Of a DNA stretch of 10,459 nucleotides, positions 1-7,241 are shown piece after piece. Made by a program: the position numbers and the translations under genes. The first letter of the stretch is position 1. Each line of letters opens with the position of its first letter. This stretch comes from Escherichia coli (GTDB lineage Bacteria > Pseudomonadota > Gammaproteobacteria > Enterobacterales > Enterobacteriaceae). The notes below the pieces were generated by a model. That model was not told the DNA's origin. It did no database searches and worked only from the letters and a program-made list of their open reading frames with translations. The stretch is from the NCBI RefSeq assembly GCF_003334765.1, contig NZ_QOWT01000058.1. One strand, 5' to 3'.

Positions 1-1016
1 ACCGAGAAAGACACTGAAGTTCAAAACACCGAAAGAGATAATTGAAAGGGGTGTTGCATTGACAGATTGAATCTACAACAGCGTATTTTGCACAGGAGTC
101 GCTGAAAAATACGCGTTAATCGAACAATGGCGACAACAATTTCCCATTGAAGCGATGTGTCAGGTATTTGGTGTATCCAGGAGCGGTTATTACAACTGGG
201 TACAGCATGAACCCTCAGACAGAAAACAAAGTGATGAGCGGCTAAAACTGGAGATTAAGGTGGCACATATCCGCACTCGCGAAACATATGGAACCCGGCG
301 GCTCCAGACGGAGCTGGCAGAGAATGGCATCATCGTTGGTCGTGACCGACTGGCACGTCTTCGTAAGGAGCTAAGGCTACGCTGTAAGCAGAAACGCAAG
401 TTCAGAGCGACTACGAACTCGAACCACAATCTGCCAGTTGCGCCAAATCTGCTGAACCAGACGTTCGCTCCTACAGCACCAAATCAGGTCTGGGTGGCGG
501 ACCTGACGTATGTTGCCACACAGGAGGGATGGTTGTACCTCGCTGGCATCAAAGATGTTTATACGTGCGAAATTGTCGGCTACGCCATGGGAGAGCGCAT
601 GACAAAAGAGCTGACAGGTAAAGCCCTGTTTATGGCGCTCAGGAGCCAGCGCCCACCTGCCGGGCTAATCCACCACTCTGATCGAGGTTCACAGTACTGC
701 GCATACGATTACCGGGTCATACAGGAGCAGTTTGGTCTGAAAACATCAATGTCGCGTAAAGGTAACTGTTACGACAACGCTCCGATGGAAAGCTTCTGGG
801 GAACGCTGAAAAATGAGAGCCTGAGCCACTATCGTTTTAATAACCGGGATGAAGCCATCTCAGTAATACGGGAATACATTGAGATTTTCTACAATCGTCA
901 GCGTCGTCACTCTCGTCTGGGGAATATCTCCCCGGCAGCCTTCAGGGAAAAATATCATCAGATGGCTGCTTAAAAAAAGAACAAATGGTAGTGTCCGCTA
1001 TTGCCAGTACACCTCA
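1..1016 (+). mobile_element. IS3-family insertion sequence (possibly IS600-like), 3' ~1 kb; left end lies outside the window
   Basis: OrfB frame is open from 71 and contains the 272-aa ORF 155..973. An OrfA-like C-terminal tail (QIESTTAYFAQESLKNTR, 63..119) sits in the frame that is -1-shifted relative to OrfB, the usual IS3-family arrangement. The proposed right end CCAGTACACCTCA (1004..1016) ends in CA; its reverse complement TGAGGTGTACTGGCAATAGCGGACAC resembles IS3-type terminal repeats as I recall them. The right boundary is an estimate. Confidence 0.7.
155..973 (+). CDS. IS3-family transposase OrfB (DDE integrase-core domain)
   Basis: 272-aa ORF with typical IS3 OrfB features: N-terminal VSRSGYY motif, WLYLA...D, HSDRGSQY and CYDNAPMESFWGTLK motifs. 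In IS3 elements this frame is normally expressed as an OrfAB fusion by -1 frameshifting; the frame is open upstream to 71. The specific IS name is from memory only. Confidence 0.9.
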   Translation: MCQVFGVSRSGYYNWVQHEPSDRKQSDERLKLEIKVAHIRTRETYGTRRLQTELAENGIIVGRDRLARLRKELRLRCKQKRKFRATTNSNHNLPVAPNLLNQTFAPTAPNQVWVADLTYVATQEGWLYLAGIKDVYTCEIVGYAMGERMTKELTGKALFMALRSQRPPAGLIHHSDRGSQYCAYDYRVIQEQFGLKTSMSRKGNCYDNAPMESFWGTLKNESLSHYRFNNRDEAISVIREYIEIFYNRQRRHSRLGNISPAAFREKYHQMAA

Positions 1017-1447
1017 CGCTTCCAGTCTTCGCGGTCGTTGTCGATAACTTCTTTTTTTGCCCAGCGATGGATGCTGCCGTCAATGTTTCCGGCATCCACA
1101 TCACTAGGCCAGAGAGCGTAGGCCAGTTCGTCATCCAGTGTTTTCCATGTCTGCTTGTATTCGCGATGAATGGCAGCAATGACCGGGCTGATTTTTCCTG
1201 TTGAATTTTCAGTGTACTGTTGATTGGCTCTGGCGCGGGCGAGATCAACAACAGACGTGTATTTTCCGGTTTCCTTGCGTTCACCTTCGCGACGTTTTTT
1301 CCAGATGCGCATCTCTGCCTGAATTTCGGGCCATTTAGCACCAGGAATACATTTATGCTTAACCCACCCAATGGCGTGCAACTTAAGCTCCGGATACGGG
1401 TTATTCCCCTCTGAACAGGCGCGTAAGGACTGGCAAAACGCCCGCAA
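998..1447 (-). CDS. hypothetical protein (phage-like), 3' end runs into the IS3-family element
   Basis: 149-codon ORF with protein-like composition, but the first codon is TTG and the first ATG is 46 codons in. The last 5 codons plus stop (998..1016) lie inside the proposed IS terminal sequence, so the native C-terminus may have been replaced by the insertion. A second minus-strand frame (970..1464) has low-complexity translation and is considered spurious. Confidence 0.3.
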   Translation of the reverse strand: MRAFCQSLRACSEGNNPYPELKLHAIGWVKHKCIPGAKWPEIQAEMRIWKKRREGERKETGKYTSVVDLARARANQQYTENSTGKISPVIAAIHREYKQTWKTLDDELAYALWPSDVDAGNIDGSIHRWAKKEVIDNDREDWKREVYWQ

Positions 1448-1466
1448 AAAACTCTCGAGGGCAAAG

Positions 1467-1637
1467 GTGAAGAAACCTGCTGTGGTTGATCCGGACCTTA
1501 TCTGGTCATCACCTGACGGAGAAATACGTCGCTACGACAGTCGCCTAAACATAATCTGTCGCGAGTGCCGGAAGAGCGAAGTTATGCAGCGCATACTGGC
1601 TTTCTATCAGGGTAATTTTCAGGACGTGGCGCAGTGA
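1467..1637 (+). CDS. small hypothetical ORF, translationally coupled (GTGA overlap) to the downstream methyltransferase-like gene
   Basis: The track ORF starts at 1371, but that would overlap the divergent minus-strand ORF. GTG at 1467 is preceded by GAGGG (1457..1461). Its stop TGA (1635..1637) overlaps the GTG start at 1634 of the next ORF. No recognised domain. Confidence 0.25.
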   Translation: MKKPAVVDPDLIWSSPDGEIRRYDSRLNIICRECRKSEVMQRILAFYQGNFQDVAQ

Positions 1638-2080
1638 GTGCACCGGCAACCATTCTTGATATGTGCTGTGGCAGCCGCATGTTCTGGTTCGATAAGTCTG
1701 ACGAACGGGCGATATTCAGCGATATCAGAAAAGAAGGATACACATTACGCAATGGGAGACGCTTGATTATCAGCCCTGACATTATCGCAGATTTTCGTGC
1801 ATTATCATTTGCAGACGCATCTTTTTCGATGGTTGTATTAGACCCTCCGCATCTTGAGAGTGTTGGTGATAACGCCTGGATGGGAAAGAAATATGGACGG
1901 CTGAATAAAGATGCCTGGCGTGATGATTCGCGACAGAGATTTAAAGAAGCCTTTCGGGTGTTGAGGCCGCACGGCGTTCTGATTTTTTAATGGAATGAAA
2001 CGCAAATACCGGTAAGCCAGATTCTGGCACTGACAGACAGAAAACCTGTTATCTGTCAACGAACAGGGAAAAAACGATAA
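1634..2080 (+). pseudogene. SAM-dependent (DNA) methyltransferase-like gene interrupted by an in-frame TAA at 1988..1990
   Basis: Translation contains a motif-I-like DMCCGSR and a motif-IV-like VVLDPPH (DPPY/NPPY class), then LRPHGVLIF before the TAA. The same frame stays open for 29 more codons (WNETQIPVSQILALTDRKPVICQRTGKKR) to TAA 2078..2080. Assignment to the N6-adenine/N4-cytosine methyltransferase class is by motif only. Confidence 0.45.
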
Positions 2081-2252
2081 AACCCACTGGATTATTTTTA
2101 TGAAAGAGGCATCCAGTGAGTAGATTCGTAAGGCTACAGATACGTATATCTGAATAATTAAATTCAGTTCTGTAAATAAAATTTAATCCTTAACCGGATG
2201 GATTTCTGCACCCTCAGAACATCAGGAGGCCGCCCGAAAGGGCGGTAGTGAA

Positions 2253-2363
2253 ATGCGAAAGTTCAAAATTATTATTGAAACGGGAATAGCTGGTGGAGAT
2301 TTTGAGGATGTATTCGAAGTGGACGATGACGCAACACCTGAGGAAATTCATGACGGAGCATAA
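2253..2363 (+). CDS. small acidic hypothetical ORF (36 aa)
   Basis: ATG 2253 to TAA 2361..2363, translation MRKFKIIIETGIAGGDFEDVFEVDDDATPEEIHDGA. AGGAGG lies at 2224..2229, separated from the ATG by a GAAA-capped hairpin (2229..2246). Below the ORF-track length cutoff and unverified. Confidence 0.2.
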   Translation: MRKFKIIIETGIAGGDFEDVFEVDDDATPEEIHDGA

Positions 2364-2412
2364 GAAATTTTCTTTAACTACTGCAATTACTCATACCACG
2401 AAATAAAAGACG

Positions 2413-2604
2413 ATGAGGAAGAACAAAGTGGCTGATTTTTGTTCAGCTAAATATAACATCAGTTTTGAAGAGCGGGATGAACTATTAATGGACTATGGTG
2501 AGTTACGCGGTGGAAGTGCTGCTGATGTCGAATCCTAGCGTGATGACTATGAAGCGGGAAAAACTCCGGTCGAAGCATATTGTGATGAGTGGGGCGATGA
2601 ATGA
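2413..2604 (+). pseudogene. short ORF interrupted by in-frame TAG (2536..2538); probable decayed prophage gene
   Basis: ATG 2413, 41 codons, TAG, then 21 more open codons to TGA 2602..2604. The alternative frame is also open, which fits decayed coding DNA. Confidence 0.2.
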
Positions 2605-2888
2605 GCGAGATTAATTATCAGGAAGGGCATGAAACGGCGGGGCAAGCAAAACCAGTGGCATGGCGATATCGCTACGTGAAAAAAGGCGTTACGGACTTTC
2701 AGGGGAAGTAGTGGTCTGGTGACTGGAAATATGTACCGAAAAAAGAGGATTGTAACGACAGGCCGAACTATCAAATTCAGGCCTTATTCACTGCCTCACC
2801 AGTCCCAGTTACATCAGAAGAACTGGTTAAAGCTGTGCACTTTTATGAACAACTAAAACGCGAAAATCCACCAACATCCGGCAACTAG
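2601..2888 (+). pseudogene. short ORF interrupted by in-frame TAG (2709..2711); probable decayed prophage gene
   Basis: ATG 2601 overlaps the upstream stop (ATGA). 36 codons, TAG, then 58 further open codons (WSGDWKYVPKKEDCNDRPNYQIQALFTASPVPVTSEELVKAVHFYEQLKRENPPTSGN) to TAG 2886..2888. Confidence 0.25.
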
Positions 2889-3142
2889 ATTAATGGATTA
2901 ACTATGTCGGTTAAACGACCAGCCAACTGAAAAAGCGGAAACCTGATTACAGGTTGCCAGATAAGGCAATGAGCTACCTGGCGCGGAACGGACTGATAAG
3001 TATGGGGAATGTTTTACGATGAACCTTTAGACTAAAGAGTTTGTAACGCTATGTAAGTGATTTTTTCTGGTTTAGATATTTATATGTCCGGCCAAATTGA
3101 GGTGTGTTTAAATGTAATTGCACATTGATTGTAGGAGGAATA

Positions 3143-3322
3143 ATGAAAAACGCATTGCAGTTTTTGTTTGTTGCGTTCTGGTTGTTCGCATCATGTATGC
3201 CCATCATCTTCACAGCAAGGTATATGGAAAAAGTTGATGTTTTGATATTAATATTTGGATATATAAATGCCCTTTTTTTAGGGGTGTTCATGGCGGTCAT
3301 GTGCATTGAATACTGGCGGTAA
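3143..3322 (+). CDS. small predicted membrane protein (59 aa, two hydrophobic helices) in an AT-rich islet
   Basis: Strong Shine-Dalgarno AGGAGG (3133..3138) 4 nt before ATG 3143. Translation MKNALQFLFVAFWLFASCMPIIFTARYMEKVDVLILIFGYINALFLGVFMAVMCIEYWR has two hydrophobic segments. Local GC content is low. The track lists a longer 3104 start with no ribosome-binding site. Confidence 0.4.
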   Translation: MKNALQFLFVAFWLFASCMPIIFTARYMEKVDVLILIFGYINALFLGVFMAVMCIEYWR

Positions 3323-3508
3323 ATACAGCGAACTCCATTGGTTTAGTTGGATATTTACTGTGCTGGACAAAAACGGTTTGCGGGGAAATCTTAGTTAAGT
3401 AGAATGACTGCGGGTGCTTGAGGCTATCTGCCTCGGGCATGGACACCAACGGCAGATAGAGAAAAGCCCCAGTTAACATTACGCGTCCTGCAAGACGCTT
3501 AACATTAA

Positions 3509-3590
3509 TCTGAGGCCAATTTCATGCTAGACACATGTAGGTTAGCCTCTTACGTGCCGAAAGGCACGGAGAAGCAGGCTATTGTTAACA
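3509..3590 (+). other. degenerate relE-3'end/hok-leader-like segment (paralogous remnant of the hokD translation-initiation region), no intact toxin ORF
   Basis: 3568..3582 GGAGAAGCAGGCTAT is identical to the hokD ribosome-binding site and start region at 6857..6871. The upstream hairpin CGTGCC-GAAA-GGCACG (3553..3568) parallels CACC-GAA-GGTG (6824..6834) with compensatory changes. 3509..3537 weakly resembles 6794..6818. The start position reads ATT and only 6 codons follow before TAA. Confidence 0.4.
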
Positions 3591-3627
3591 CCAAGCTGTA
3601 ATGTCCCCTTTGAACCATTCTAAAATG

Positions 3628-3654
3628 TCCCCAGACAATTCTCTGGGGGATTTT
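3628..3654 (+). other. stem-loop CCCCAGA-caattc-TCTGGGG plus T-run directly upstream of the transposase start
   Basis: 7-bp perfect stem followed by GATTTTTC, ending 2 nt before ATG 3657. It is terminator-like; it may insulate the transposase gene from read-in transcription or be part of the IS end. Confidence 0.4.
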
Positions 3655-3656
3655 TC

Positions 3657-4970
3657 ATGATCAAAGAGACTGTTACGATGAGTCATAAGGAACTCCACCG
3701 ACTTCAGATTATTCAGGAACAAGCTGCGGCACGCATTGGCATTTCTATTCGGCAGGTTAAACGTCTGGTGCAACGGTATAGAAATGAAGGGCCTTCTGGT
3801 CTGGTTTCCCACCGACGTGGAAAGCGTCCTAATAATTCCTTTTCTACTGAATTCAGAGCAACAGTAATTTCACTCCTCAAAGGCCGTTACGCTGATTTTG
3901 GACCTACGTTTGCGTGCGAAAAATTGCGCGAGATACACGGTTTATCTTTATCCGTTGAAACTCTCAGAAAGTGGATGATAGAAGAGGGGTTATGGCGTGA
4001 ACGCCGTCGTAAAATTGCCCGTATATATCAACGCCGCATGCGACGACCATCTTACGGTGAACTGATCCAGATTGATGGCTCACCTCATGACTGGTTTGAA
4101 AATCGAGGCCCCAGATGTACACTGATCGTTTTCATTGATGATGCCACCAGTGCGTTGATGGCGTTGCGTTTTGTGCCTGCTGAAACAACCCGGGCTTACA
4201 TGGAAACCCTCCGGGGTTACCTTAATGATCATGGCGTACCGCTCGCTCTCTACTCTGATAGACACAGTATATTCAGGGTAAATAACCCAGAGCGGGAAGG
4301 TGAGCTGACCCAGTTCACTCGTGCGATAAAGACACTGGGCATCGAGCCAATCCATGCCAACAGCCCGCAGGCAAAAGGGCGGGTAGAGCGCGCCAATCAG
4401 ACACTACAGGACAGGCTGGTCAAAGAAATGCGGCTTCAGAATATCAGTGATATTGAAACAGCAAATGCATGGTTGCCGACCTTTATTGAAGCCTATAACA
4501 ACCGGTTCGCTACGTCGCCTCGTACTACTGATAATGCTCATCTTGATGTGCACCATTCTGAAGAGGAACTGGGTTATATCTTCAGCCTACAGGCGAAGCG
4601 CGTTCTGTCTAAAAATCTCACTTTCCAGTACAAAAGCAGTGCGTTTCAGGTACGCAGTGAGGGCCGGGGATATCGACTTAGGCATTCGGTTGTTACTGTA
4701 TGCGAGAACTTTGACGGTGAAATTAACGTTCTGTATGACGGGAAAGCGCTGGGCTGGGAAAAGTATGTTGATGGCCCGGAGCCTATACCACTGGATGATG
4801 AAAAGAGTGTCCATGAACGAGTGGATAATGCCCGTATTGATTTACGCTCAAAATACTATGTTAAACCTAAAGCTGACCATCCCTGGCTTACGCGCCGAAC
4901 GCAAAGTCATCAGCAAGTTAAGCCCCCGAAGTTACCTAAAAAGAAGCCTGATCCCGATAAAAAAGATTGA
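3657..4970 (+). CDS. DDE transposase with N-terminal helix-turn-helix and integrase-core domain (ISNCY/IS1202-group or IS481-like)
   Basis: 437-aa ORF. The N-terminus (RIGISIRQVKRLVQRYRNEG) looks like a helix-turn-helix. Candidate catalytic residues are D in IQIDGSPHDW, D in ALYSDRHSIF and E in KGRVERANQTL. The basic lysine/proline-rich C-terminus is typical of transposases. GGGGGA precedes the ATG by 7 nt. Family assignment is from memory. Confidence 0.85.
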   Translation: MIKETVTMSHKELHRLQIIQEQAAARIGISIRQVKRLVQRYRNEGPSGLVSHRRGKRPNNSFSTEFRATVISLLKGRYADFGPTFACEKLREIHGLSLSVETLRKWMIEEGLWRERRRKIARIYQRRMRRPSYGELIQIDGSPHDWFENRGPRCTLIVFIDDATSALMALRFVPAETTRAYMETLRGYLNDHGVPLALYSDRHSIFRVNNPEREGELTQFTRAIKTLGIEPIHANSPQAKGRVERANQTLQDRLVKEMRLQNISDIETANAWLPTFIEAYNNRFATSPRTTDNAHLDVHHSEEELGYIFSLQAKRVLSKNLTFQYKSSAFQVRSEGRGYRLRHSVVTVCENFDGEINVLYDGKALGWEKYVDGPEPIPLDDEKSVHERVDNARIDLRSKYYVKPKADHPWLTRRTQSHQQVKPPKLPKKKPDPDKKD

Positions 4971-5366
4971 AACCAAGATCGATTCGGTTGAGTGCATATC
5001 CATTCATAGGGTAGATTCTTAAGTCGCGTTTCTGGTGTTCATTTTCGGGTGGTTTGTTACTTGTTTTACCGGGGATATGCCAGAAACGCGCTGAGTCAGT
5101 CTGGGCGGTGCGCGTAATGAGGCGTTATGGTAAATAGCCTATGCTAATGTCCGCTAAGAGCAAGAAGCGGAAGTTGGCAGTTTTGTGGACTGTCCCCACA
5201 AAAGTGACTACAGAAATAGTTGCAATTCATAATTGATCATGGGTTGTCAGTTAAACTCGTGGCGATTTAAATAGACTAATTGGGAGTGCGTCCATTACTT
5301 ATATCTTGTAATGTTAACTATCAGAAATGATACAAAGATAATATGTCTTTAAAGAAAAGGCTGATG

Positions 5367-5392
5367 GCGAAAAGTGGCCCGATGAGGGCCAC
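5367..5392 (-). terminator. rho-independent terminator of flxA
   Basis: Hairpin GTGGCCC-gatga-GGGCCAC (5374..5392). On the minus strand it is followed by TTTTCGCC, 14 nt downstream of the flxA stop. Confidence 0.5.
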
Positions 5393-5406
5393 AATACGGC
5401 TGTCAC

Positions 5407-5739
5407 TTAGACGTAAATATCAATGGTGCCAGCGGTATTTGTATCGTCTTTTTTCTCTTCTTTTTTATCAGGCTGAACTGTCGCGTCTTCATTCTTTTTC
5501 TCTGCCTGCTGCCTTAACAACTGCTCCAGTTGAGCCCAGAGGCTTTCAATTTGCTTCTGTACCAATGCAGCCATTTCTTTTTTCTGCTGTGTCGTCATCC
5601 CCTCTTCCGATGAGATTTTCCCAAGCTTTTCAGTCAGCACCTGAATTTGTCTTGTGATTTTGGCTATTTCTGATGTTCCTTCCGGGGCGGAGTTGTTTGA
5701 AATAACGGTTGAGGTATTTCCCTGAATTGTGACAGACAT
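5407..5739 (-). CDS. flxA: FlxA (FliA-regulated prophage protein)
   Basis: 110-aa ORF (MSVTIQGNTSTVISNNSAPEG...QQKKEMAALVQKQIESLWAQLEQLL...) recognised from memory as E. coli FlxA. GGAG lies 7 nt upstream of the ATG on the minus strand, and a sigma-28 promoter lies just upstream. Confidence 0.85.
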   Translation of the reverse strand: MSVTIQGNTSTVISNNSAPEGTSEIAKITRQIQVLTEKLGKISSEEGMTTQQKKEMAALVQKQIESLWAQLEQLLRQQAEKKNEDATVQPDKKEEKKDDTNTAGTIDIYV

Positions 5740-5762
5740 AGATTTCTCCTTTTAAAAAAGCA

Positions 5763-5789
5763 CTATCGGCATGCACAAAAAAATCTTTA
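5763..5789 (-). promoter_or_regulatory. sigma-28 (FliA) promoter for flxA
   Basis: Minus strand reads TAAAGATT-N11-GCCGATAG against the class-3 flagellar consensus TAAAGTTT-N11-GCCGATAA (14/16). The -10 element ends about 24 nt upstream of the flxA ATG. Confidence 0.6.
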
Positions 5790-5941
5790 ATCGTATTTCT
5801 TGTGTCATTAATTGTTTGATGTTCAGATTGTTTTCCTCGCGGGCTGGCGCGCCTCAGAAAGTAAAGCTTGTTGACAGGGGTAAACGTTCGGCAATAATTT
5901 TCTGCCGCATGCGGGTGTTGCATAAAACGTGTTACGTTCCT

Positions 5942-6247
5942 TTATCGACAGGTCAGGTCACCGCTCACCCGCCGACGAGAAAGCAACACTGACATGCTAA
6001 AGCAAAAAATAGATGAATAAGTTGAGTTGTGCATATGTAGCCTGACCGTCACAAAGTATATGGTGTCTGTACCAGTAAGATGATGGCCGGACTCTTTAAA
6101 AACGAGCTGACCTGCACAATACAGGATGGACTTAGCAATGGCTGCTCCTGGCACAAAGCGGACAGTGATCACCGTTCTTACGACTACTTTCTGACTTCCT
6201 TCGTGACTTGCCCTAAGCATGTTGTAGTGCGATACTTGTAATGACAT
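5942..6247 (-). CDS. ydfV: YdfV-like hypothetical ORF (doubtful coding status)
   Basis: 101-codon ORF at the position where K-12 annotates ydfV, as I recall. Its ATG (6245..6247) lies inside the relBE operator repeats and the translation is S/T/C-rich and poorly protein-like, so it is kept at low confidence. Confidence 0.4.
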   Translation of the reverse strand: MSLQVSHYNMLRASHEGSQKVVVRTVITVRFVPGAAIAKSILYCAGQLVFKESGHHLTGTDTIYFVTVRLHMHNSTYSSIFCFSMSVLLSRRRVSGDLTCR

Positions 6248-6259
6248 TTGTAATTACAA
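6208..6259 (+). promoter_or_regulatory. relBE promoter and operator (relO)
   Basis: -35 TTGCCC (6208..6213), 17-nt spacer, -10 GATACT (6231..6236). TTGTAAT repeats at 6236..6242 and 6248..6254, and the palindrome TTGTAATTACAA (6248..6259), lie between the promoter and the relB ATG at 6272. This is the classic RelB-RelE autoregulation site. Confidence 0.65.
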
Positions 6260-6271
6260 GAGGTGTAAGAC

Positions 6272-6511
6272 ATGGGTAGCATTAACCTGCGTATTGACGA
6301 TGAACTTAAAGCGCGTTCTTACGCCGCGCTTGAAAAAATGGGTGTAACTCCTTCTGAAGCGCTTCGTCTCATGCTCGAGTATATCGCTGACAATGAACGC
6401 TTGCCGTTCAAACAGACACTCCTGAGTGATGAAGATGCTGAACTTGTGGAGATAGTGAAAGAACGGCTTCGTAATCCTAAGCCAGTACGTGTGACGCTGG
6501 ATGAACTCTGA
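6272..6511 (+). CDS. relB: RelB antitoxin
   Basis: 79-aa ORF MGSINLRIDDELKARSYAALEKMGVTPSEALRLMLEYIADNERLPFKQTLLSDEDAELVEIVKERLRNPKPVRVTLDEL, near-identical to E. coli RelB from memory. Its stop overlaps the relE start (TGATG). Confidence 0.93.
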   Translation: MGSINLRIDDELKARSYAALEKMGVTPSEALRLMLEYIADNERLPFKQTLLSDEDAELVEIVKERLRNPKPVRVTLDEL

Positions 6512-6798
6512 TGGCGTATTTTCTGGATTTTGACGAGCGGGCACTAAAGGAATGGCGAAAGCTGGGCTCGACGGTACGTGAACAGTTGAAAAAGAAGCTG
6601 GTTGAAGTACTTGAGTCACCCCGGATTGAAGCAAACAAGCTCCGTGGTATGCCTGATTGTTACAAGATTAAGCTCCGGTCTTCAGGCTATCGCCTTGTAT
6701 ACCAGGTTATAGACGAGAAAGTTGTCGTTTTCGTGATTTCTGTTGGGAAAAGAGAACGCTCGGAAGTATATAGCGAGGCGGTCAAACGCATTCTCTGA
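6511..6798 (+). CDS. relE: RelE mRNA interferase toxin
   Basis: 95-aa ORF MAYFLDFDERALKEWRKLGSTVREQLKKKLVEVLESPRIEANKLRGMPDCYKIKLRSSGYRLVYQVIDEKVVVFVISVGKRERSEVYSEAVKRIL, recognised as RelE. It is translationally coupled to relB. Confidence 0.93.
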   Translation: MAYFLDFDERALKEWRKLGSTVREQLKKKLVEVLESPRIEANKLRGMPDCYKIKLRSSGYRLVYQVIDEKVVVFVISVGKRERSEVYSEAVKRIL

Positions 6799-6869
6799 AC
6801 CAAAGCATGACATCTCTGTTTCGCACCGAAGGTGACACTTCTGCTTTGCGTTGACAGGAGAAGCAGGCT

Positions 6870-7025
6870 ATGAAGCAGCAAAAGGCGATGTTAATCGCCC
6901 TGATCGTCATCTGTTTAACCGTCATAGTGACGGCACTGGTAACGAGGAAAGACCTCTGCGAGGTACGAATCCGAACCGGCCAGACGGAGGTCGCTGTCTT
7001 CACAGCTTACGAACCTGAGGAGTAA
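6870..7025 (+). CDS. hokD: HokD (RelF) Hok-family type I membrane toxin
   Basis: 51-aa ORF MKQQKAMLIALIVICLTVIVTALVTRKDLCEVRIRTGQTEVAVFTAYEPEE, not in the ORF track because it is short. It has a ribosome-binding site GGAG at 6857..6860. The Hok family signature is a transmembrane helix followed by LCE. Confidence 0.9.
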   Translation: MKQQKAMLIALIVICLTVIVTALVTRKDLCEVRIRTGQTEVAVFTAYEPEE

Positions 7026-7083
7026 GAGACCCGGCGGGGGAGAAATCCCTCGCCACCTCTGATGTGGCAGGCATCCTCAACGC

Positions 7084-7115
7084 ACCCGCACTTAACCCGC
7101 TTCGGCGGGTTTTTG
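7084..7115 (+). terminator. rho-independent terminator after the relB-relE-hokD operon
   Basis: Hairpin CCCGC-ttcg-GCGGG (7086..7099) followed by TTTTTGTTTTTATTTT (7100..7115). Confidence 0.6.
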
Positions 7116-7241
7116 TTTTTATTTTCAACGCGTTTGAAGTTCTGGACGGTGCCGGAATAGAATCAAAAATACTTAAGTAGCGCGCAGGGATAAGAGGGAT
7201 GGTCCCTTAAAGGGGAGAGCTAATTATCCGGAAGGATTCTG

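Follow-up and report, generated by a model that had tools for sequence, protein, structure and literature searches.

A probable IS1202-family unit transposon with exchangeable cargo at the start of hokD in Escherichia coli

Which DNA moves with a transposase gene when no terminal repeats can be seen beside it? This question is raised by a 10,459-nt stretch of Escherichia coli DNA (NCBI RefSeq assembly GCF_003334765.1, contig NZ_QOWT01000058.1; hereafter the window), in which a 437-aa transposase open reading frame, tnp, had been reported at 3657–4970 on the plus strand and was confirmed here. The original prediction took this gene for part of a mobile element with open ends, a view borne out by two empty sites, and considered a unit of about 1.7 kb ending near 5320, which did not survive. 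Judging from sequence comparisons, window 3583–6856 is very likely one IS1202-family unit transposon of the ISEsa1 lineage, with targeting of hok gene starts and exchangeable cargo; the earlier interpretation is therefore partly supported.

The ends were fixed by comparison with uninterrupted hokD loci (L005 and L006), the empty-site check that had been proposed originally, which defined an insertion of 3,274 bp at window 3583–6856. Window 2936–3582 corresponds to L005 1557–2203 and window 6856–7120 to L005 2188–2450 in colinear order, the two L005 matches overlapping by about 15 bases, and L006 agrees. Both empty sites hold a single copy of GGAGAAGCAGGCTAT, whereas the window holds two, at 3568–3582 and 6857–6871 on the plus strand and nowhere else (two copies in 0/200 shuffles), forming a 15-bp target-site duplication around the insertion. 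Plasmid and phage records with hok but no transposase follow the window as far as 3582 and differ from it thereafter, and in other records the match begins only at 3583. The element starts with TGTTAAC at 3583 and finishes with GTTGACA at 6856, that is, with TGT/ACA termini. Its left inverted repeat (IRL; 3583–3612, plus strand), TGTTAACACCAAGCTGTAATGTCCCCTTTG, agrees at 22/30 positions with the reverse complement of 6827–6856, the best inverted match to the left end across the whole window, and is identical in every plasmid, metagenome and viral copy examined. The earlier failure to see terminal inverted repeats within 3600–5320 was correct: of all matches to the left end in the window, the best finishes at 6856, outside that range.

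These ends bear directly on the 1.7-kb unit, an insertion sequence (IS) running from 3597 to 5314 between two copies of the 8-bp repeat TGTAATGT. The repeat does exist, only at 3597 and 5307, but two or more copies arose in 13/200 shuffles, so that the pair is explained by chance, as had been suspected. Its left copy sits inside IRL, at element positions 15–22, the true left end lying about 15 nt further left and the true right end 1.9 kb past the transposase stop. Near 5306 no inverted repeat comes to an end, independent copies stop being homologous at 3583 and at 5175 or 6856 and not at the 8-bp repeats, and the empty sites L005 and L006 refute this unit, which leaves it practically no chance of being correct. 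Reference elements with other ends had been named as what would overturn the proposal, and the ends at 3583 and 6856 are of that kind. Another pair of candidate ends, TGTAATG at 3598 and ACA at 5213, matched at only about 9/22 positions and was excluded by the flank comparisons.

Each end carries a second repeat. The inner subterminal repeat on the left, ...AAAATGTCCCC (3614–3632, plus strand), is a direct repeat (D6) of 3590–3608 at 79% identity and is presumed to be a second transposase-binding site. On the right, two transposase-site repeats fill 6799–6856 (plus strand), the right inverted repeat (IRR) proper occupying 6827–6856 and ending ...GCGTTGACA-3'. At either end the inner repeat lies about 24–25 nt inward of the outer one, a TGTC core recurring at element positions 20–23 and 44–47 on the left and at 20–23 and 45–48 on the right. 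The internal repeat is clearest in a Salmonella relative (L102), where GGGGACAYTTCTGCTTTG occurs twice. The second-best inverted match to IRL in the window, a 30-mer at 6108–6137 (18/30, 16/22) on the right edge of the window-specific cargo, may be the relic of an older right end.

The target is equally well defined. The duplicated GGAGAAGCAGGCTAT runs from the Shine–Dalgarno sequence of hokD through the AT of its ATG, and the right copy supplies these bases to the hokD coding sequence (6870–7025, plus strand, from the RefSeq annotation of the identical locus), which now lies 3' of relBE. On the other side, 3412–3582 (plus strand) is the orphaned hok/sok leader, target DNA left of the insertion by its colinearity with L005 and by the Rfam scan, in which the full RF01794 (sok) model matched 3412–3583 with 104 bits against a gathering score of 59. 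In L005 and L006 the leader and antisense region and the Hok coding sequence are contiguous, which identifies an ordinary hok/sok locus.

When genome, metagenome and viral collections were scanned for the end sequences, 45 loci with both ends emerged, the window included. Exact flanking repeats of 15 bp were present in 38 of them and of 16 bp in 3, and nearly all insertions share one nucleotide position and one orientation across different hok genes: the right flanks encode at least seven different Hok proteins and show five duplication variants, and the left flank is a hok leader throughout. A Phytobacter IncF plasmid (L007) carries a 12,843-bp copy with identical ends, containing tnp, nickel and chromate resistance genes (ncrYCBA, chrBA), other genes and relBE, inserted in a plasmid hok gene with the duplication GGAGAAGTCAGCTAT. 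In IncHI2 plasmids (L009) a 6,093-bp copy with tnp, ISEsa2, a cytochrome b gene, a cation-diffusion transporter gene and relBE occupies a different hok gene and is flanked by GGAGAAGAAGGCCAT. When the flanks of these two copies were joined and one repeat copy removed, the reconstructed empty sites were found uninterrupted in real plasmids over 300/300 nt, at 99.7% identity for L007 and 100% for L009, and the L009-type (IncHI2) site occurred in 454 records at ≥99%. The 12.8-kb unit was also found at a non-hok site on a Serratia plasmid (L008) with a 16-bp duplication, and a 16-bp repeat likewise flanks L028. The ends, the duplication, a precise and oriented target, a modular backbone and movement of the unit as a whole are thus directly observed.

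Could the link to hok reflect the spread of one ancestral insertion by homologous recombination in hok flanks, and not target choice? Hok leaders and coding regions are similar enough to recombine, and copies without matching flanks do exist (L026, L087). Under such spread the donor duplication would travel along with the element; instead, both copies of the repeat match each other as well as the local hok allele, in five variants. Exact empty sites exist for three contexts, and relatives with transposases only 76% and 80% identical, whose ends have diverged, also sit at ldr and hok starts. We consider this explanation unlikely and retain target choice.

The transposase itself places the element in the IS1202 family. 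The product of tnp, an ISEsa1-type DDE transposase with an in-frame 9-aa deletion, scored 456 bits against NCBIfam NF033594 (ISNCY_2; cut-off 250), the next best family, IS481, falling under its own cut-off, and Pfam recognised N-terminal helix-turn-helix domains and an rve_3 core. Its catalytic motifs read IQIDGSPHD ... FIDDATS ... YSDRH ... GRVERANQTLQ and include both IS1202 signatures (PMC10132070; Siguier, preprint 10.1101/2022.12.17.520857), a Q at E+7 (VERANQTLQ) and a DD pair between the first two D residues. PGAP names a near-identical 446-aa plasmid protein 'IS1202-like element ISEsa1 family transposase'. The ends conform to the family as well, being imperfect inverted repeats of about 22–30 bp in the form 5'-TGT...ACA-3', and 15 bp falls within the known duplication classes (5–6, 15–17 and 27–28 bp). 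A compact IS of 1.3–2.0 kb with a single open reading frame does not describe it: the window copy measures 3,274 bp and has four passengers, flxA, ydfV, relB and relE, and others reach 12,843 bp; we therefore regard the element as a transposon built on an IS.

The 437-aa form is identical to the 446-aa plasmid protein except that QESINRHIT is missing. This loss is a 27-nt deletion between ATTAYTCAGGA direct repeats just before the helix-turn-helix (window 3715–3720 against L007 1650–1676), and because of its position the window copy is probably immobile. The deleted form is common: among the 45 loci, 17 have exactly its length of 3,274 bp and 18 measure 3,301–3,302 bp, the length with full tnp, and in metagenome and viral data about one hokD-borne copy in two is 3,274 bp long. 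PGAP splits the intact reading frame into an incomplete pseudogene at 3678–4700 and a separate 'ydfW' at 4821–4970, and such splitting by annotation pipelines has obscured the element. The left end contained no recognisable sigma-70-like promoter for tnp.

More distant relatives share the choice of site. A Salmonella chromosome (L102) has a plain 1,448-bp IS with a 76% identical transposase and ends matching at 24/30 positions, whose 15-bp duplication, CAAGGCGGCTATATG, is the Shine–Dalgarno sequence and start codon of an Ldr type I toxin gene. On a Kosakonia chromosome (L098) a 9.9-kb relative with an 80% identical transposase, a ParE toxin–antitoxin pair and an ars operon lies at a hok start, and a Klebsiella relative (L106; 87% identical transposase) has a hok leader on its left. 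Another Klebsiella locus (H189/L016), also with an 80% identical transposase, was uninformative, its N-terminus being different and its ends not recognisable. Common to all hok and ldr targets are an outer palindrome, TAGCC...GGCTA, and, ending just before the duplicated segment, a small inner hairpin; three non-hok targets also have a short hairpin in that position. This shared structure is at most a tentative candidate for the recognition determinant. The ldr leader at L102 9860–9926 resembles hok leaders (window 3520–3582) in having ACAYCATCAAGGATAGCC ... GGCTAT, which reflects either a shared leader architecture or a hybrid locus. ParE-family toxin–antitoxin pairs follow tnp directly in L098 (11360–11882) and L016 (10156–10678), whose transposases are about 80% identical, relBE lying instead at the far end of its element, and carriage of type II toxin–antitoxin genes seems to recur in the lineage.

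Between these ends the element is modular, its order being IRL, tnp, a cer-like site, variable cargo (here flxA and ydfV), relBE and IRR. The left arm corresponds to window 3583–5175 and the right arm to about 6139–6856, and the interior differs among copies. The left arm is conserved over 1,593–1,620 bp across copies and is closed by a hairpin, GTCCGCT-N10-AGCGGAA (5149–5172, plus strand); homology between the window and plasmid copies ends at 5175. The copy-specific cargo occupies 5176–6138, where other copies have unrelated genes, and includes flxA (5407–5739, minus strand) and most of ydfV (5942–6247, minus strand), both assigned from the RefSeq annotation of the identical E. coli locus. 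The right arm, 98.9–99.0% identical in the 12.8-kb and 6.1-kb plasmid transposons, holds relB (6272–6511) and relE (6511–6798), which read outward to hokD (6272–6798, plus strand), and the relE stop falls exactly at the start of the right-end repeats. Two inverted 24-bp hairpin motifs of the form GTCCGCT-N10-AGCGGAC, 20/24 identical, bracket the cargo in every copy (window 5149–5172 and about 6139–6165; L007 3109 and 13642; L009 21455; L004 2138 and 3676) and may be recombination sites or terminators. In IncHI2 copies, ISEsa2, of the IS110 family, lies within the loop of the left one.

This arrangement has to be reconciled with ISEsa1 as catalogued. ISfinder lists ISEsa1, from Cronobacter sakazakii, in the IS1202 group of ISNCY, and Harmer and Hall describe it as 1,609 bp long, with inverted repeats matching at 15/22 positions, a 439-aa transposase, no duplication and no target (PMC10132070). 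If the mobile unit were this 1.6-kb IS, flxA, ydfV and relBE would be unrelated neighbours. The catalogued dimensions, the length of the conserved left arm and the 'ISEsa1 family' label that PGAP gives the plasmid protein all suit that possibility. An ISEsa1-style right inverted repeat about 1.6 kb from the left end is nevertheless absent: near the transposase stop (window 5000–5400; element positions 1560–1680 in three copies) the best ungapped match reached only 12–14/22, and nothing IRL-like ends near 5100–5260. The left arm has no flanking duplication of its own, and exact 15–16-bp repeats surround IRL...IRR in every cargo class; the 12.8-kb unit moved whole to the non-hok site in L008. 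We therefore regard a mobile unit of 1.6 kb as highly unlikely. The transposase lineage is the same, the 446-aa reading frame giving the catalogued 439 aa when started at Met8, and the differences lie in a length of 3.3–12.8 kb against 1,609 bp, a right end past relBE, a 15–16-bp duplication and a specific target. An insertion of ISEsa2 cuts the left arm short at element position 1,610 in IncHI2 copies, which would explain the catalogued length. Judged against its published description, catalogued ISEsa1 is probably the left arm only. No reference copy of ISEsa1 was found in pESA2 or the first 50 kb of pESA3 of C. sakazakii BAA-894.

The position of relBE inside the element also bears on how these genes reached hokD. 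An earlier account, credited to Ramisetty and Santhosh 2016 in PMC6379469 and PMC5120126, has relBE integrated into, and truncating, an ancestral hokD, and PMC5120126 also cites co-transcription of relBE and hokD (relF). On that account relBE would have entered as a minimal toxin–antitoxin cassette without a transposase, tnp being a separate, decayed or domesticated gene, and E. coli K-12, which keeps only transposase fragments (ydfW) beside an intact relBE-hokD, fits such a picture. The full loci, by contrast, have relBE inside IRL...IRR with the duplication at the outer ends, relE stops where the right-end repeats begin, and relBE travels with the same transposase gene in plasmids, so that a separate cassette is extremely improbable. 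Under the unit transposon, K-12 retains only window 4786–6856, its ydfW being the last 49 codons of tnp; the K-12 copy is, by this alignment, a remnant missing everything left of 4786, and insertion of the transposon explains the origin of the K-12 relBE-hokD operon. In plasmid L004 (1232–2165), IS26 removed tnp and the left end, leaving the cer-like segment, a different cargo and relB; this segment is a stranded right part of the transposon.

Two structures near tnp had been described originally as unusual flanking features; both exist, yet neither flanks the element, one being a hairpin over the tnp ribosome-binding site and the other part of a putative Xer recombination site of the cer type. 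The second of these, the 11-bp inverted repeat after the transposase stop, was confirmed as exactly complementary (CGCGTTTCTGG at 5025–5035 and CCAGAAACGCG at 5080–5090) and lies inside the accessory region of a cer-like site at 4993–5135 (plus strand), recognised by its core pattern and by colinearity with ColE1 cer. Its core, GGTGCGCGTAA-TGAGGCG-TTATGGTAAAT at 5107–5135, is unique in the window, appeared in 0/200 shuffles and has the expected layout of an 11-bp XerC arm, a central region of 6–8 bp (7 bp here) and an 11-bp XerD arm. A candidate ArgR box, the ARG-box-like TGCATATCCATTCATA, stands at 4993–5008, about 100 bp to the XerC side, and its ColE1 counterpart, TGCATAGGTATTCATA, opens the colinear region; from the ARG box to the XerD arm the alignment with ColE1 cer has 97/146 identities (E 1e-14). 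The two sites share an identical XerD arm, TTATGGTAAAT, a close XerC arm and an ARG-box-like sequence at the same distance, and they differ in that ColE1 cer is a plasmid site with an 8-bp central region, whereas the putative site here has 7 bp and lies inside a transposon. As RNA, 5020–5095 folds at -30.1 kcal/mol (z = -4.7), with 0/200 shuffles folding as well; the stem around 5025–5090 extends beyond the 11-bp arms, and an inverted repeat with different arm sequences occupies the same place in ColE1 and a small Citrobacter plasmid. Small ColE1-like plasmids and IS26-truncated transposon copies match the cer-like segment alone, and Rfam contained no family matching this region.

The hairpin before the tnp ATG is likewise present as described (stem 3628–3649, then ATTTTTC and the ATG at 3657, the U-run ending 1–2 nt before the ATG). 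Its stem (3628–3649, plus strand) has 8 pairs, 5 of them G-C, and a loop of 6; in it, UCCCC of the inner repeat is base-paired to the purine-rich ribosome-binding site of tnp. Equivalent hairpins, with different loops and stem extensions, occur in four relatives whose transposases are 62–87% identical, and two of the four lack the U-run. Because the hairpin is kept and the U-run is not, occlusion of the ribosome-binding site appears a more likely role than the termination suggested by the label 'terminator-like'. Such a hairpin would hide the site from transcripts entering from the hok promoter; we infer that read-through from this promoter is the obvious thing to guard against, because the element enters hok in the sense orientation.

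Among described systems, several share part of this behaviour. ISAjo2 and ISAba32 also have a single TnsB-like DDE transposase with Q at E+7, TGT/ACA termini and internal end sites, and insert in fixed orientation, specified by a short site, without accessory targeting proteins; they differ in targeting pdif/dif with 5–6-bp duplications 5 bp from the XerC arm, whereas the lineage described here makes 15–16-bp duplications at type I toxin starts and carries its own Xer site. The ISTde1 subgroup shares the 15–17-bp duplication and TGT termini, and target specificity and large cargo are not reported for it; a 5–10-aa transposase indel is one of its traits (10.1101/2022.12.17.520857). ISKpn21, ISKpn65 and ISRel10 are IS1202-family members with extra genes, but these belong to the ISAba32 group and have one hypothetical gene, in contrast to a fixed maintenance backbone (cer-like site and relBE) with exchangeable multi-gene cargo. 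In the family descriptions, ISEsa1 is listed with neither duplication nor target, and the 15–17-bp subgroup likewise without a target (PMC10132070; 10.1101/2022.12.17.520857). We found no described transposon of matching structure, and no hok targeting, in the literature searched.

Tn7 inserts site-specifically and in fixed orientation where it does no harm, and its TnsB-type transposase binds several sites at the ends. The element resembles it in its specific site, fixed orientation, harmless position and TnsB-type transposase with several end sites, and differs in having no TnsA, TnsC or TnsD/TniQ genes. Neither the element nor the plasmid copies have an annotated Tn7-like selector or regulator gene (TnsC, TnsD/TniQ, TnsE), the other genes of the plasmid copies being metal-resistance, transporter and hypothetical genes. 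The target is therefore selected by the transposase itself or by a host factor. Pedersen and Gerdes reportedly described, in 1999, IS150 and IS186 next to chromosomal hok loci of E. coli K-12. These elements are similarly associated with hok loci and inactivate them; they belong to unrelated IS families and lie near the loci, not at one fixed nucleotide.

In the mechanism we propose, a TnsB-like DDE transposase would bind two sites per end, cut at TGT/ACA and choose the translation-initiation region of type I toxin genes, joining the ends to a target cut with a 15–16-bp stagger. The duplication would then rebuild the Shine–Dalgarno sequence and ATG before the hok coding sequence. Hok would be separated from its promoter, from mok and from the Sok target, with an orphaned leader and sok region left upstream, and outward transcription of relBE would make the captured hok the third gene of a relBE-hok operon. 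RelBE would stabilise the carrier replicon, and the cer-like site would let host XerCD, with ArgR and PepA, resolve transposition cointegrates or plasmid multimers, its role in cointegrates being speculative. On balance we lean towards the wider proposal that the ISEsa1 lineage homes to the nucleotide and in one orientation into type I toxin (hok, ldr) starts, puts the toxin behind its own type II genes and cuts it from its promoter and antisense control, and has its transposition resolved by a built-in cer-type site and the host Xer system.

Several observations weigh against the explanation of the window element as a whole. Most of the 45 loci are the same hokD insertion, inherited, and hence represent about 6–10 independent events, not dozens. 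Insertions outside hok occur at one site in 7 loci and in L011, L014, L029 and L053; the last (1345–4645) is a complete 3,301-bp copy with only a 6-bp repeat (CGCCTT), reflecting either a second insertion mode or a rearranged copy. In L026 and L087 the left and right flanks come from different targets and there is no duplication; by their flanks, these look like recombinants between two resident copies. A 3,054-bp Vibrio relative (L105; 62% identical transposase) has only a 9-bp flanking repeat and does not lie at a toxin gene, so that hok/ldr targeting may be limited to an enterobacterial clade of about 76% identity or more. The central region of the cer-like site, whose Xer activity is putative, has 7 bp against 8 in ColE1 cer, and the transposase-only 1,448-bp Salmonella relative has no cer site, which is therefore not required for transposition.

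The locus itself is widespread. Many E. coli chromosomes have the studied region in their Qin prophage at 100% identity, and at least 80% of window 3300–5600 is present in 774 of 5,426 complete genomes. RefSeq annotates the identical E. coli locus in the order ISNCY transposase "pseudogene", ydfW, flxA, ydfV, relB, relE, hokD. Upstream, window 412–2379 holds an IS66-family element, an ISEc22-like transposase with frameshifts plus tnpB and tnpA fragments, which is presumably the 'first transposase element' of the original prediction. Just 3' of hokD, a match to the Rfam isrK model at 7034–7115 (25 bits against a gathering score of 50, E 0.043) is probably due to chance.

These findings give true ends, a duplication and a target to an IS1202 lineage listed without them in the 2023 family descriptions, and they suggest that catalogued ISEsa1 is only half of the element. 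K-12 relBE-hokD ("relBEF"), flxA, ydfV and ydfW are the remains of one transposon, so that deleting relBE or measuring its expression touches a captured hok gene as well. As a class of specific transposon target, the region where type I toxin genes start is new, and because it is chosen without Tn7-like selector proteins, the mechanism of recognition can be tested directly. Nickel, chromate, arsenic and cation-efflux genes ride on the same transposon backbone in plasmids of Klebsiella, Enterobacter, Salmonella and Serratia; resistance cargo therefore has a point of entry into IncF and IncHI2 plasmids at the hok locus of their leading region. If the wider proposal is true, one addiction system would have taken control of another, and on conjugative plasmids and in prophages the hok locus would serve metal-resistance cargo as a dedicated landing pad.

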